DNA from: Paramecium tetraurelia
Taxonomy: Eukaryota
NCBI GenBank assembly: GCA_000165425.1
Contig: CT868006.1
Span: forward strand, 186,001 to 250,000
Direction: 5' to 3'
Length of the DNA: 64,000 bases
Shown: positions 1-45,313 of the stretch, in pieces
How positions within the stretch are numbered: the stretch's first letter is position 1
How the letters are laid out: each line of letters opens with the position of its first letter
Position numbers and translations under genes: made by a program
Notes under the pieces: generated by a model
What the model was told of the DNA's origin: nothing
Databases searched by the model: none
The model's input: the letters and a program-made list of their open reading frames with translations, nothing else

Positions 1-1064
1 CACGACCTCCTCTTTGAATGATTCTGGCTTACTCTAGAAAACAATCAGGTTTATGATCTTTCGACAATTCAATTACCGACAATTTATTATCGAATCTTCC
101 TATAACTGCTCTACTATCACCAATATTGGCACAGTATAATACATTTTCAAAGGAGATTACTGTTACAGTGGTTGCACCTGAGTAAGTGACATCAATTCCA
201 CTTTCAAGTAATTCTTCATTGGTTTATAAAAAACAGTTTTTGAGGATTGTGTTAACTTATCTAGGAATTAATTAAATATTGTACTTATCTCTATCATAAC
301 AGGATGAAATGGCCTAGATTCCTTATTCAATGAAGGAAGGTAATACTTATTGTAGGAATTGAGCTACTTAGTGGCCATTTGTGCCATGTCCATCTGAAAC
401 TTAAATATACCAATCATTTTCTTTGTTGTTAAATTTGTTGATTAGTTTGTAGATGTCCTAATTGGTTTTAGTTTAACCATTGTAAAGCATTCCAGGAGCA
501 CTCAATCCATTTGCTTTTGCTATATAGAGGTGCAAGTTTGAAATATCAGGATTACTAATTGAACGAGGTCCTTTAAATAATTTCGATTTAACTATGGATT
601 GTTATTGTTGCTTAGTCATTTCCATTAATTTCTGGTATTTTTTAGAAATGCCTTGTTGATTGAATAGATCTTTGTTTTACTAAATTACAGGTTATTTAGT
701 TTCAGGCCTCTCCTGCTTGATTTTTAATAAGATTGACAAGGCATTGGCAGATAAGTTATGTGAATTTTCTTTGGTTTCAATTAATTTGCTGTTCTAACGT
801 GCATGAGTTTTTTTGAGTAATACACTGCTAACATCTTTGAAATCCTTTCCACTGGCTGGCCTTGATTTTTTGGCTTCAATTTTTGAATTGCCACCTCCAT
901 TCCTATTGCTGGGTACTAGATATCTAAATAGTAATTTGATTGTTGTACTTGTTTGCATTTACGATTGGTGACTTCAATCGGGCTTATTATTCTTGCTCAC
1001 TTTTCCTTTTTAGAAGTGAAGCATATAATTTATCTGGAGAAATTTAGGAGGCTTTAGCTTTCAT
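1..1064 (-). CDS. Protein phosphatase 2C (PPM family) with long N-terminal extension; 3' end runs off the window
   Basis: Code-6 translation from ATG at 1064 (MKAKASQISPDK...) contains the PP2C motifs TNQD, DGHGTNGH, SGATTVTV, CANIGDSRAVIG and LSKDHKPD..EQARIIQRGGRV. 25-nt intron near 926-950. Confidence 0.9.
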
Positions 1065-39568: not shown

Positions 39569-40920
39569 TCAATCCATATTTAAGAACTTTAAATCACTTA
39601 ATGGTTCATTAAACCCTCTATTAAATTTAACCTATTAAATACCGAAAACACTTAGCTTAATTTCCTTATTTTCAGTTGGTAAGTACACTCTCTTAACTAT
39701 CTTTTTTGCAAATTAACAAGCTTCCAAAATAACAGTTGCATAATCTTGATATTTGTTACAATGATCGAGTAAAGTAATTAGTAATTTTTACACTGAGAGA
39801 TATACCTCGTGAGACACTTAGTAATTAGAAACATTTTTCTAATACTTTTCAGACGACACCTTAGACAGCACTTATTCTAAACAATATGTATAACTATATG
39901 GCAAAGCTACTTCCAACAATTCACTCAATTTCTTTATTACTTCATCCGTAATACTATTGTTTAGAAGAACATTGTGAAAGATCTTCTGATAACTTTGACT
40001 TTCTTCTGATATGTATTCAAAATTTTCTGAATCTTTGGATTTAATTTAATCGAAAATTGGTTTTTTCACTTTATTCAATAATTGGCTTTCTGGCTTAAAA
40101 TGAAGCTATTAATAAATATCTCTTTTAAGGACATCAAAGTCAATCTTGTCTATTGATATATTTTTCTATAATTGTTATTCCATAACACCATTATTTGGTT
40201 GGTGCTACTCTAGTTTTTAACTAATGCCTGTTAAATCGTATTACAAATTCCTGATTACTGAAATCTCAAATATGATAAACTTCATATGAGAATCCTATAA
40301 TAGGTTCTTTCTCTCTTATTCTAAATTGGAGAGCTTTAGTTAATAATTGATAACATCCTTACAACAGGCATCGATGAATTAGTTATAAATAGTAAGAAAA
40401 TTTTGAAAACTTAATTCACTAACTGCAATGCTCAATTTTTTCTTCTGCAATCTATTTAATTAATGTTATTTTTCTTCCTCAATTGCATTCCTAAATTCTG
40501 AAGTAAATTAATTCAGAGTTTATAAATTTTACTAATACTCCTTCTTATTTGCTAAGTTAAATTAGAGTATTTCCTTTTATAAATTATCTTGCTTAATCAA
40601 AAATTATTGTTATTCGCTTATTAAGGTATTATTTAACTACATGGCAAAGCATTTAGTTTATTCTGATTTAATAAGTAAATAACTTCTAAGAATTGTGTAT
40701 AACTCTGTCGTTCCGTCCTATTCATTGATTAATTTGGATATCTATAGACCTATAATATTCAAGATTTACTACCAATATTTTCAAGACTTTTCGAATAGGA
40801 TTCCTCCAATTTGAAGATTTATTATAATAAACCAATAAAACCTTAACTGGATTTCATTTTATCATTAAGCATTTTCTAATAGGATTCGAGATGCTCAGCT
40901 ATCTCTTTATACCAACTCAT
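39569..40920 (-). CDS. Hypothetical helical protein
   Basis: MSWYKEIAEHLESYQKMLNDKMK... long code-6 frame; 3' end approximate. Confidence 0.6.
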
Positions 40921-41627
40921 AAATATAATTTTCAGAATAAAAATAACTGAATATATTAATTCCTTTATAATTGAATAATTATAATTAAATAAACAATCAA
41001 TTTCAATAAAAAACAGTAGAGATTATAATAAATAGAGTTAGTTTTATTCACTCTTTAGAACTTACCTTGAAAAAAAGTAGTATGAAATGTATTCTAAATA
41101 AAATTTAATTAATTAAGAGTTTATAACTATAGAAATATTGTTTAATTTGATATAAAACCTTGATGGATAAAGGGTTAGAAGCCTATTATGGTTTTAATTC
41201 AAAATAAATAAATAATTTTTTTCATCTATTTTATAATATTATATCATTATTTTAATAAATTAAAATAAATTAAGTAGTTCTTATTATTATTTTAAAGAAT
41301 AGAAATACCTGTTGGGAATAACATCATTTAATCAATTTTTTTAATATCTTTGTTAATATATTTCATTTTCATGGGTTTGTTCTTATGACTCAATAATTCA
41401 TATTATTTTAACATTACTCTATTTATCATTCGATCTATGCTAAGTTCCTCTTATTTTAATGAGTTCAACATCAATTTAGCCTGTTCTTTAGTTATTTTTA
41501 CTGTTTATTTTCGAAAATTACTCGATAATCCAAATTAGTATTATTTATAAATAGAATATTTTTTTCAATTTGCATTTTTATACTGTATAGAATATTATCT
41601 TTTCCTATATATTTAATTGTTTAAACA

Positions 41628-42470
41628 ATGGAACTCGCTATTGTATTGGGTTTATTAGGTTTTGAGCCTGCTGGAAAATCCAGATTGAATCAACTTTTAC
41701 CCAGAGTAACTTGTGAGGGATGCACTGCTTTTAGAGATGCAGTCATCAAGGGGAATTAGTTAATGTTGGAACTTTTTGCTTTATTTTGTTAGCAAGGAAT
41801 GCATGAAAAGTTTAAATTTGTTCATGTTATTCTGACCGATGGAGAAGATAACAAATCATAAACAAGTTTATAAGACTTTCTTGTATATTAATAATTTCTT
41901 TAATAAAAACTCCCACCAAACATACTTTAAACATTTTATATAGGTGTGAATGTAGAGAACAACAATACGGTTTAACAAGAAATGTCAGCAATTTTAAAAT
42001 GTAGTGGAAAGTCTGCTTCGTATTATCCCGTAAGTAGTAATTAAATTAATGACATCTTTTAAAAAATTTAAATGCAGATTGGTATCAGAGTTTAAGAATA
42101 AGGAGTTATAATCCAAAATAGCTAAGCTAGAATTGCTTTAAGGTAATAAACTTATTAGCCAGTGGTGTCAATGTAAGTTAACAATTACATTCTGCTTTTC
42201 ACTCTTGATGTCTCTGGATCAATGAGTGATCATTGGTATAAGGTGTGCTCTGCAGTTAGAAGCTTTCTTGATACTCTTGGATCAGGTGATTTGGTACTAG
42301 GAATTACATTCAATGATAATGTATAAGTGTTAACTGCAAAGTAATAATAAGCAGCCAAAAAGACTTAATAGACTTCCACTCCTCAAAGAACCAAAAGTTC
42401 TCAGCCTTAATAATAAATAAAGTAGACGGAGAGAACAGGGGTAGATAGTTGCTGTTGCCAAATCTTTTGA
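41628..42470 (+). CDS. Circularly permuted von Willebrand factor A domain protein with C-terminal CaaX (CCCQIF)
   Basis: Intronless 280-aa ORF. GCTAFRDA (about 41718-41741) and ILTDGED (about 41829-41849) come before LDVSGSM (about 42204-42224). Ends DSCCCQIF*. Confidence 0.88.
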
Positions 42471-42976
42471 ACTTAATAATGATGCTTTTTTATAATATAT
42501 AATTGCAAATATTTATAAGTTTCTAAGCCTATGATACTGATTTTTTTATAATTATTTTATTCAAGTTTTTAGGGTATAACATTATTTTAAATTTATAACA
42601 GTGATTATGTTGTGCTATGATTTACAGACTCCGAAGCATATGAATTCAAGCACTAGATTTACCTCTATATAAATAATTGTTATATTTATGTTAAATTAAA
42701 TAATTGATGAATTTTAAAATTTTAAAAACAACAATAGGATGGATTTCTTTGGAATATTTAATTTATTAAAATCATTTTAAAAAGGTTTATGTCATTATAA
42801 CTAGGTAATTAACTCGTTTCAAACAAAATGACCATTCTTAAATATAAATTTTACAAAACAGTGTGAGTCTTCATAAATTTGTATTTGGCATCTAATTTTG
42901 CAAATTGAGAAGAATTATTTAATTAAATTATCAGACTAATTTTATATATCAAAATATGTGAGTTTTTAATAAAAAT

Positions 42977-44100
42977 ATGATACTTCAATTCAAATGTGAA
43001 AGATTACATTATATTCTAAACACTCACTACATTGTATCAGTGTATAATGACAAGTTGACTATTGGGAATAAGGTAACCTATCTATCGTAATATGAATTAG
43101 AGTCATCCTAAATATGAGTATAAATTTACACTTGAAAATGTTTTACACTGGTACGTGGAGAATCTAAAGCTGCAGGCTTTTGGGATTGAGTATAATGGGG
43201 CAATCAAGTTTTTTAAAGCGAATAATAAAGATTTGGAAAAGTTAAGAGGGTTGAGTAGATGTCTTCTATGTTTCGATAATATTGTGGAGCTCTACAAATA
43301 AATCGATATTAATGAGCCATCGAGGTTGTAGGATCAAATATCCCTTTAATTGTGCAGCATGAAGGTTGTAAGCTAGTAGCAGTTGTTGACAGAGGTTCCT
43401 ATAGTTCGATAGTTGAATCATTAGGGAATAATTTCATACCGTGAATGCTTTCAATATAAAAGCCAATATTATATTGTAACAGAATTTGTTGGAGGAATAA
43501 CATTACAGAAATTCATAATTTAAAACCCTAAGTTGAGTCATCTATAATGCAGAGCCATAATACTTGTAAGTGTTCTTGTTTATTGAAAGCAACTGCTCAA
43601 GGCTGTAAAATATTTACATGAACATTACGTCATACATGCGACAATCGATATTAGCCAAATTGTCTACAAATCAGATTTCATCAAAATTATTGATTTTTCT
43701 GAAGCCAAACAAACTAACAAAATAGATGACAAGGATATCAAGAATTGCGGTCGCATTCTATTCTATCTGTATCAAACATTCTCATCTTAATTTAGGTACA
43801 CTGGCAAAGAGTACAGCGACAAGGATCAAGAACTAAATTACAAGACTCTTTAGAGTGCGTAGACACCTAAATTGGCTTAGGAACTCATTTTAATTATGAT
43901 TTGTGACAACAATGTAACGGTGTCTCTGATTTTGGAGCATCCGTATTTCTCATTCTCGTTGGATGCTGAGGAGAGGAAGAGAAGATTCTAAAAGTTCCAG
44001 CGAGTGTAGAGGTCAACTTCAGAAATGGATGAAAGTGATGCTATCTCTCAGAGTATACCAGAATTGTAAACAAATAAAAGTAAATCATTAAGATAATTGA
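42977..44100 (+). CDS. Protein pseudokinase (CAMK-like fold) with N-terminal PH-like region
   Basis: LNHQGII, YIVTEFVGG, AVKYLHEHYVIHATID, IKIIDFSEA, ILEHPYF; catalytic motifs degenerate. Confidence 0.8.
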
Positions 44101-44150
44101 TGTGAAAAGTATTTTATTATTATTATAATTAAATATTAAATTATTTATTA

Positions 44151-44503
44151 ATGTAAACCGAATCACAGTACCCCTAAATAGATGTCAAGGAATTCAAGGC
44201 ATTTGCTGTTTGGAGATGGAAAGCTGAACAAGTAAGTAAATAAATTGATTATTATAGTTAAATCAAAATTGTTGTTCATGCAAAAAATTGATGACTGAAC
44301 CATGCATTGATTGCGAAGTGAATGATTAGAATGATGAGCAAGAAAAATGCATTGCTGTTTAGAGTGGAAATTGCGGTCATGCTTTACATCAGCATTGCAT
44401 AAGAAAATGGATTCAAACCAAAAGTCAGGGTGGCACATCAGGCACCTGTCCAATGTGTGACTTGATTTGGGAAATCACAAATGAAGTCGAATTATAGAAT
44501 TGA
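44151..44503 (+). CDS. Rbx1/APC11-like RING-H2 protein
   Basis: VKEFKAFAVWRW, CCSC..EPCIDC, GNCGHALHQHCIRKW, CPMC..WE; one 26-nt intron. Confidence 0.85.
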
Positions 44504-44751
44504 CATTCTGAGAATCAATATAATTTTACAATTTTTATTTTAAATATCTTGTATTTATAATACTACTAAGTCTATTCATCAAGATCTACGAATCGTTTAA
44601 TGAGCATCATCCTATAGACTTTAGAGTGTCATTCGAACAGTCTTTTACATCAAATGAATATTGGACTAATAGGTTGGCATATTGAAATACACATATAAAC
44701 ATGGTAAGATGATTAATTAACAATATTAATTAAAATAAAATTCAAATTTTC

Positions 44752-45313
44752 ATGAGCAGAAGTAAGTAACAACCTCAAAGATAAATCGCTCCTTAAAGAA
44801 AAGCTCGTTCTGAACTTAATGAAGAGTAGAAGCAAGAGATTAAGGAGGCCTTTGATTTATTTGACACTGATGGCACAGGATACATTGATGTCAAAGGTAC
44901 GATGTAAATTCATATTTTTTAGAACTCAAGGTGGCTATGAGAGCTTTGGGCTTTGAAACCAAAAAGGAAGAAGTCAAATAGATGATTAAGGAGGTGGATC
45001 GTGAAGGAAAAGGAGTAATTGAATTTCCTGATTTTCTCGAATTAATGACAGTCAAAATGGTAAGATGGTTAATAACTATTAACAGGGTGAGAGAGATCCA
45101 AGGGAAGAGATGCTGAAAGCATTCCGTTTATTTGATGATGACAACACAGGAAAAATCTCATTGAGAAATTTAAAAAGAGTTTCAAGAGAATTAGGAGAAA
45201 CAATGACAGACGATGAATTGTAAGAGATGATTGACGAAGCTGACAGAGATGGCGACGGAGAAATAAGTGAGGAAGACTTTATTAGAATAATGAAGAAGAC
45301 CAACTTATTTTGA
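44752..45313 (+). CDS. CETN: Centrin (EF-hand basal-body protein)
   Basis: [74 protein letters not shown]; two introns. Confidence 0.96.

Follow-up and report, generated by a model that had tools for sequence, protein, structure and literature searches.

A 280-residue protein (herein referred to as P0001) is encoded on the plus strand at positions 41628–42470 of the 64,000-nucleotide Paramecium tetraurelia stretch analyzed here (contig CT868006.1; "the window" denotes this whole stretch). Judged by its sequence, P0001 is homologous to vWA domains of the metal ion-dependent adhesion site (MIDAS) type and differs from them in linear order, which makes it a permuted variant. The canonical order betaA-alpha1-betaB-betaC-...-betaF-alpha7 is not kept; the N-block (residues 1–152) is the final two thirds of a canonical vWA domain and the C-block (residues 186–237) is its initial third. 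We consider it highly likely that P0001 is a true circular permutation of the vWA/MIDAS domain. The gene is real, conserved, and transcribed, and it belongs to a large and apparently undescribed family of protist proteins that share the rearranged order.

Element order and predicted fold

Translation with NCBI table 6 (the ciliate nuclear code, in which TAA and TAG are read as Gln and TGA is the stop) gives a single open frame of 280 codons with a TGA stop at 42468–42470. The intronless 280-residue open reading frame (ORF) that a first-pass annotation had reported from the DNA alone is recovered in this translation with every peptide it quoted: SRLNQLLPRVTCEGCTAFRDAVIKG at residues 18–42, FVHVILTDGEDNKS at 64–77, QTFYIGV at 101–107, SYYPV at 131–135, QINDIFQKI at 139–147, YILLFTLDVSGSM...NDNVQVL at 187–235, and CCCQIF followed by the stop at 275–280. 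The N-block runs from a short N-terminal helix through the second half of the betaC region (LLGFEP), the MIDAS Thr loop, alpha2/3, betaD (VHVILTDG), alpha4, betaE, alpha5/6, and betaF to alpha7, and is joined to the C-block by a linker of 34–39 residues, according to where the helix end is placed. The features are listed below, with conservation counted in a 60-sequence family alignment (A2) whose members outside Paramecium are 24–38% identical to P0001, with P0002–P0005 denoting the Paramecium orthologues and paralogues (P0004 and P0005 being the paralogues), and with model confidence given as the predicted local distance difference test (pLDDT).

41628..42470, plus strand: whole gene, intronless 280-codon ORF and TGA (translation; P0002–P0005 collinear through CQIF; RNA-derived contigs)
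41628..42083, plus strand: N-block, residues 1–152 (BLASTP, hhalign, VIA-align, pLDDT 85–98)
41724..41726, plus strand: Thr33 codon, MIDAS threonine in GCTAFRDA (sequence; T in 48 of 54 non-gap A2 rows)
41838..41840, plus strand: Asp71 codon, MIDAS aspartate of LTDG (sequence; D in 58 of 60 rows)
42084..42182, plus strand: linker, residues 153–185, from alpha7 to betaA (pLDDT 42–59 in both models)
42183..42338, plus strand: C-block, residues 186–237, betaA with DxSxS, alpha1, betaB, and first half of betaC (Pfam, ITIH1 profile match, pLDDT 95–98)
42207..42221, plus strand: DxSxS codons, D194-V-S196-G-S198 (sequence; D in 58, S in 59, and S in 59 of 60 rows)
42339..42449, plus strand: Q/T/K-rich tail, residues 238–274, predicted disordered (pLDDT 46–57; length and sequence vary among orthologues) and presumed to be a flexible spacer towards the membrane
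42450..42467, plus strand: CC-CQIF, residues 275–280, CaaX-type box C277-Q-I-F after two Cys (CQIF invariant in 5 of 5 Paramecium sequences)

The swapped order is most directly seen against three canonical-order relatives from environmental assemblies (P0082, P0083, and P0145), the closest canonical sequences among the matches listed, of which P0082 and P0145 match the Pfam VWA profile over its full canonical length (positions 2–173 and 2–165 of 174). When the family profile hidden Markov model (HMM) is aligned with P0082, columns 180–247 fall on residues 3–70 (E 3.5e-16) and columns 22–177 on residues 70–225 (E 4e-39), so that the two stretches, separated by two profile columns, abut in exchanged order with the permutation junction at residue 70. 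P0083 and P0145 give the same swapped, abutting pair (E 6.6e-28 for the N-block match of P0145). Pairwise comparison agrees: BLASTP places P0001 residues 9–174 on P0082 residues 69–233 (E 3e-16), with a weak second segment of 181–235 on 31–69 (E 0.14), and hhalign matches the N-block to P0145 with a probability of 99.1. Each structural element had been reported to occur once; the elements are indeed all present, but betaC is itself interrupted, its two parts falling at opposite ends of the chain, such that VQQLMSFEP of P0082 corresponds to VQVLTA at the C-terminal end of P0001 plus LLGFEP at its N-terminal end.

Profiles of known vWA families and structures point the same way. Pfam VWA_2 covers residues 189–243 of P0001 with profile positions 1–60, and the paralogues P0004 and P0005 exceed the PF00092 cut-off with the C-block alone (34.1 and 30.8 vs. 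23.8 bits), paralogue residues 183–254 matching profile positions 2–78 at 34.1 bits. The family member P0109 displays both halves to Pfam in exchanged order (VWA 131–263 on profile positions 59–173, then VWA_2 303–330 on profile positions 1–33). Against the solved structure of ITIH1 (6fpy; overall E 1.6e-9), the profile aligns the C-block at 199–255 with 281–337 (i-E 2.9e-7) and, weakly, the N-block at 42–95 with 353–403. The circular permutation that the first-pass annotation had read from the order of motifs, with two partial profile matches in swapped order as its expected signature, is supported by P0082, P0083, P0145, and ITIH1 with the family HMM and by P0109 with Pfam. A feature search of the ESM Atlas returned bacterial vWA clusters at 0.91–0.93, which is a lead only.

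Structure prediction suggests that both blocks fold into one vWA-like alpha/beta domain, the vWA fold being a three-layered one whose six-stranded sheet has betaA in its middle. AlphaFold2, supplied with the 60-sequence alignment, modeled the full chain at a mean pLDDT of 83.9 and a predicted template modeling score (pTM) of 0.78, with 194 residues at pLDDT ≥90 and the C-block at 95–98; residues 1–240 alone reached a pTM of 0.86. By our own estimate, the latter model would be expected to score about 0.86 if its approximately 212 ordered residues were rigid and about 0.67 if the C-block floated. Helices are predicted at 3–10, 20–26, 35–55, 81–94, 113–129, 137–151, and 203–215 and strands at 62–70, 100–107, 130–135, 186–194, 222–228, and 232–234; the N-terminal hydrophobic stretch ELAIVLGLL is modeled as a helix packed on the domain (pLDDT 85–96). 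Comparison of the model with 48,161 chains using VIA-align superimposed residues ~8–153 on the final ~130 residues of many vWA chains (Z 7–9.2, root-mean-square deviation (rmsd) 2.5–3.2), including ITIH1 (model 8..152 on 341..477, Z 9.2, rmsd 2.6, 133 aligned), Rpn10 (model 9..150 on 62..192, Z 8.0), a Catenulispora vWA protein (Z 8.4), vWF A1 (Z 7.5), and the LapA vWFA domain (chain 63..193). Single-domain alpha/beta folds align over both blocks, for example 3rag_B (Z 9.6, 153 residues, 56..237).

Two observations on the models stand apart from these comparisons. The best order-dependent structural match, 3rag_B, is an uncharacterized Alicyclobacillus protein (Foldseek E 1e-4, rmsd 5.3), possibly reflecting just a generic Rossmann-like likeness. 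The linker (153–185; 42084–42182) and its counterpart in relatives carry an alternating hydrophobic pattern (IGIRVQ..GVII..ARIALR..PVV), yet pLDDT is below 60 in both models; this segment may fold only upon binding or in an oligomer.

The gene, its family, and the probable origin of the permutation

The window is AT-rich (GC 0.23–0.38) and makes coding sense only with the ciliate nuclear code. Thirty TAA/TAG codons within the ORF are read as Gln. The ATG at 41628 is the first in-frame ATG downstream of an in-frame TGA at 41460–41462 (open frame 41463..42470). Clearly non-coding frames of 330 residues are also open under table 6, so length is no proof, and the gene is accepted as real because of its homology. 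The nearest database matches by BLASTP, automatic gene models called "VWFA domain-containing protein", are a Paramecium octaurelia protein of 285 residues (88% identical), a P. primaurelia protein of 276 residues (75% identical), and a paralogue pair of 262 and 264 residues that are 67–69% identical to P0001. The five Paramecium sequences share 64–91% full-length identity and have the start, the element order, and the CQIF end in common; on this basis the gene is conserved and the window is assigned to the macronuclear DNA of a species in the Paramecium aurelia complex.

Transcript evidence is available for most of the ORF. Contigs of runs X3 and X4 span it at 41693–42046 and 42061–42452, collinear with the genome and without joints, and have no coverage at 40925–41692 or 42453–42949. 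These runs are taken as RNA-derived solely because their contigs carry the downstream kinase gene minus a 28-nucleotide GT..AG intron, no matching run being recorded as RNA. Raw RNA reads that fall on the ORF are few, and their mate orientation matches that of the plus-strand kinase gene. Given the coverage gaps, one continuous transcript across both blocks is likely.

When 1.84 billion representatives were searched exhaustively with the profile, 288 matches were obtained at E ≤1e-3, 142 at ≤1e-10, and 40 at ≤1e-30, and nearly all profile matches listed are collinear with P0001. Among 157 proteins examined, with profile matches covered down to the best 150 of the 288, 83 are permuted and 3 canonical, whereas 27 comprise the N-block only, 36 the C-block only, and 8 are smaller fragments; the permuted order is therefore found well beyond P0001, where the first-pass annotation had proposed to look for it. 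A word-indexed profile search contributed one further close relative; its remaining additions were mainly prokaryotic vWA proteins of canonical order. With the single protein as query, no longer fused relatives were found among 1842 candidates, which is weak evidence, and the exhaustive profile search later found long members; Pfam identifies fusions in the family to PLAC8, TMEM151, claudin-like 4-TM, ZZ, SAM, MBT, CCCH, and C1-like modules. Family members carry automatic names at most and none has been studied. The first-pass annotation knew of no description of such an architecture, and no paper on a permuted vWA domain was found in the literature searched, judged by title and abstract and with most subscription journals outside its coverage.

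EukProt assigns four of the sequences (P0024, P0060, P0156, and P0157) to the foraminifer Nonionella stella; one of them has MBT repeats before the permuted vWA domain. Either the family reaches Rhizaria or that transcriptome holds ciliate sequences.

The linker records how the permutation probably arose. Its first part (P0001 152–174) aligns by BLASTP with the tail that follows alpha7 in P0082 (210–233), and its last part, represented by the profile columns before betaA (HMM 180 onward), aligns with the P0082 leader from residue 3. The linker thus corresponds to the old C-terminal tail plus the N-terminal leader of a canonical relative, which points to duplication followed by loss of the outer ends; most likely, a canonical vWA gene would have been duplicated head to tail and both outer ends then lost. 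No tandem intermediate (a full domain plus an extra block) occurs among the 157 proteins examined, with profile matches covered down to the best 150 of the 288, and where members such as P0059 and P0109 are extended at the N-terminus, the extension bears no resemblance to the C-block.

Predicted metal site, probable membrane anchor, and alternative readings

A MIDAS comprises DxSxS, a Thr that in canonical numbering lies some 70 residues further on, and the Asp in the loop between betaD and alpha4. The five MIDAS residues that the first-pass annotation had called intact can be read straight off the window sequence and are widely conserved: D194 in 58, S196 in 59, S198 in 59, and D71 in 58 of 60 rows, and T33 in 48 of 54 non-gap rows. 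Retention of all five positions among relatives only 24–38% identical is what selection for metal coordination should produce, and it favors a functional MIDAS to which both chain ends contribute, with metal binding predicted.

The C-terminal CQIF fits a CaaX box, with Cys at -4, an aliphatic residue at -2, and then the stop. Phe at the last CaaX position favors geranylgeranylation. From the sequence, C277 is a candidate for prenylation and the two preceding Cys are candidates for palmitoylation. Of 116 family tails scored (those reaching the end of the C-block in the core HMM), 33 have Cys at -4 and mostly end in [IVL][FLIM], 21 have hydrophobic, transmembrane (TM)-like ends, 44 end within 12 residues past betaC, 2 have Cys among the last eight residues, and 16 are of other kinds; P0050, classed by script as short-tailed, raises the Cys-at-minus-4 tails to 34. 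Alternative attachments are suggested by full-length members whose chain stops at betaC: of 24 inspected, seven start with MG (four with Ser at position 6 and one with MGCC) and four have a hydrophobic N-terminal segment (by eye). Among the canonical relatives, P0083 likewise has Cys at -4, in the terminal box CCIS. Because Cys at -4 is kept family-wide and is accompanied by alternative membrane anchors, the case for lipidation is strengthened, and the tails, the starts, and the fusions to PLAC8, TMEM151, and a claudin-like 4-TM domain support a recurring theme in which a cytosolic permuted vWA module would be held at the membrane by varied anchors, in line with the membrane-anchored cytosolic vWA protein proposed in the first-pass annotation.

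The P0001 chain begins inside betaC and runs through the Thr loop, betaD (LTDG), betaE, betaF, and alpha7 into a linker of ~34 residues. BetaA, the central strand that carries DxSxS, comes next, followed by alpha1, betaB, and the opening part of betaC, and these elements would complete the domain. The metal site would be built from both blocks, with D194, S196, and S198 supplied by the C-block and T33 and D71 by the N-block. The tail of ~40 residues, predicted to be disordered, ends in CC-CQIF; through prenylation, probably accompanied by palmitoylation, this end would hold the domain on the cytosolic side of a membrane, where the MIDAS metal would engage an acidic residue on a partner protein.

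Several observations weigh against a true permutation of this kind and deserve to be set out together. The VWA_2 score of P0001 itself is 20.9 bits, below the gathering cut-off of 27. Foldseek against the PDB ranks 3rag, Csm6 CARF, and COMT first (TMq 0.25–0.39), with no vWA domain at the top; AlphaFold2 puts both halves in one confident body, and we read the Foldseek outcome as the failure to be expected of a sequence-order-dependent method on a permutant, not as counting against the fold. The linker has low confidence in both models (in the full-chain model low pLDDT is confined to 156–179 and to the tail, 238–280), and contact of DxSxS with T33 and D71 is deduced from pTM, pLDDT, and structural matches rather than from coordinates. 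At the transcript level, the first 65 bases of the ORF lack RNA coverage, 14 bases (42047–42060) are bridged by no contig, and expression is very low in two raw RNA runs, with depth over the ORF in one run only. Lastly, ciliate genes called with the standard code would be cut at TAA/TAG, so the counts of fragments and of members ending after betaC may be inflated.

The gaps in RNA coverage bear most on the idea that the ORF is a gene-model artefact, namely the middle of a tandem two-vWA gene with missed flanking exons. Such a middle would show the same block order, and the 5' end is not fixed experimentally, the first 65 ORF bases and the upstream region lacking RNA coverage; nevertheless, this reading is already largely refuted and we regard it as extremely improbable. 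Searching the 64-kb window with P0001 by tblastn (code 6) yielded no further vWA-like coding piece besides the ORF (next match E 0.3), the genes that flank it are unrelated to vWA, and the RNA-derived contigs are free of joints, all as the first-pass annotation would predict for a gene without additional vWA exons. The TGA follows immediately after the conserved CQIF, ATG 41628 is the first in-frame ATG past the upstream TGA, both ends are common to the five Paramecium homologues, and 47 of 63 complete, distant relatives have a Met within 20 residues of the N-block start, with tails that finish in CaaX-like or TM-like anchors. The blocks may instead be permuted within a chain and completed between chains, the C-block of one chain filling the N-block of another to give swapped dimers or head-to-tail membrane polymers. 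Permuted proteins born by duplication can domain-swap, and a linker whose pattern is conserved yet modeled as disordered would suit such an arrangement. However, in each of the monomer models the chain is closed on itself at high confidence (pTM 0.78 and 0.86), and the N- and C-termini adjoin in canonical vWA domains, as I-domain structures illustrate, which makes a 34-residue linker ample for closure within one chain; we therefore think intermolecular completion improbable.

Little credence is likewise given to a structural scaffold that binds no metal and keeps its MIDAS-like residues for folding. Some intracellular vWA domains, such as those of Rpn10 and Ku, lack a working MIDAS, and metal binding by P0001 is itself proposed on sequence grounds, but all five MIDAS positions are retained across distant relatives. 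Returning to the permuted, intramolecularly closed domain as the favored reading, we also entertain a more ambitious proposal, which we consider doubtful: that the family would constitute a new kind of protist MIDAS switch tethered to membranes, in which the permutation goes beyond neutral rewiring. Here alpha7, normally free and piston-like, would be captured by a conserved linker that feeds betaA, the new termini, placed at the edge of the sheet, would permit either controlled opening or a head-to-tail exchange of strands among neighboring molecules on a membrane, and the module would have been recombined with many anchors and adaptors (CaaX, tail-anchor, MG/MGCC starts, PLAC8, TMEM151, claudin-like, ZZ, SAM, MBT, and CCCH).

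Neighboring genes and comparison with known systems

Downstream of the vWA gene, a protein kinase gene at 43101–44102 (plus strand) comprises at least two exon-like ORFs that match Pfam Pkinase profile positions 39–104 and 105–152. Its 28-nucleotide GT..AG intron at 43073–43100 is seen in RNA reads of run X21 and in the X3/X4 contigs, which jump from 43072 to 43101. The catalytic-loop region reads HATID vs. the typical HRD, and on this sequence the product may be a pseudokinase. Beyond it lie a small RING-H2 protein of the Rbx1/APC11 type at 44249–44500 (plus strand; zf-rbx1, E 3.2e-13) and a centrin/caltractin-like EF-hand gene at 44713–45313 (plus strand; EF-hand_7, E 3.8e-16 on the last exon), whose division into several short ORFs points to small introns. 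On the other side, a 403-residue, coiled-coil-like, Q/N/K-rich ORF at 39572–40780 (minus strand) matches no Pfam family at E ≤0.001. It is transcribed in the opposite direction, away from the vWA gene, and the AT-rich spacer between the two is unusually long (~850 bp), with no RNA coverage at 40925–41692.

Compared with canonical vWA/integrin I-type domains (PF00092 and PF13519; ITIH1 6fpy, vWF A1 7eow, Rpn10 8amz_W/3jco_W, and LapA vWFA 9no5), P0001 possesses the same elements and the same five metal-site residues, but its order is betaC'-alpha2/3-betaD-betaE-betaF-alpha7-linker-betaA-alpha1-betaB-betaC. Its termini hence lie at an edge strand instead of at betaA and alpha7, and alpha7 becomes internal. 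The canonical relatives P0082, P0083, and P0145 share the motifs of P0001, in the form LVLTDGENNS, FVGVNL, and IEEIFDRI, and their conserved tail after alpha7 and leader before betaA are the segments that form the P0001 linker; with P0082 and P0145 being full-length Pfam VWA domains, P0001 is a circular permutant of the type that these three represent.

The nearest functional analogues are the copines, likened to P0001 at the level of the vWA superfamily, which combine two C2 domains with a cytosolic vWA domain (PMC10968396, PMC1327671). They place a cytosolic vWA domain at membranes, as is proposed for P0001; however, copine attachment through the C2 domains is transient and Ca2+-dependent and the vWA order is canonical, whereas a permanent lipid or tail anchor is predicted for the permuted P0001. 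That protists, ciliate paralogue families among them, can carry a naturally permuted alpha/beta domain of the Rossmann-like, nucleotide- or metal-binding kind has a precedent in cpRAS, a circularly permuted Ras-like GTPase fused to vWA domains; there the permutation affects the GTPase, whereas its vWA partner domain, of the Sec23/24-trunk type, is canonical, and cpRAS belongs to a different family from P0001 (PMC2430557).

The C-terminal anchors of Ras and Rho proteins combine Cys at -4, an aliphatic residue at -2, an upstream Cys, and a flexible, hypervariable tail, as P0001 does; these anchors carry a GTPase, whereas the cargo in P0001 is a vWA domain and the modification is predicted.

vWA/MIDAS domains are well-studied adhesion and assembly modules, known from integrins, von Willebrand factor, complement factors, Rpn10, and copines, and their allostery runs via the C-terminal alpha7 helix. 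A re-threaded family in which alpha7 is internal and the metal site would be drawn from two chain ends offers a natural test of the role of connectivity in MIDAS opening, and one in which the old termini are still recognizable in the linker provides a clean case of permutation by duplication. It also illustrates that order-dependent tools under-annotate permutants: Pfam recognizes only a 55-residue piece of P0001, and Foldseek puts unrelated Rossmann-like folds first. Finally, the family suggests that ciliates, and perhaps other protists as well, possess a considerable number of cytosolic MIDAS proteins anchored to membranes.

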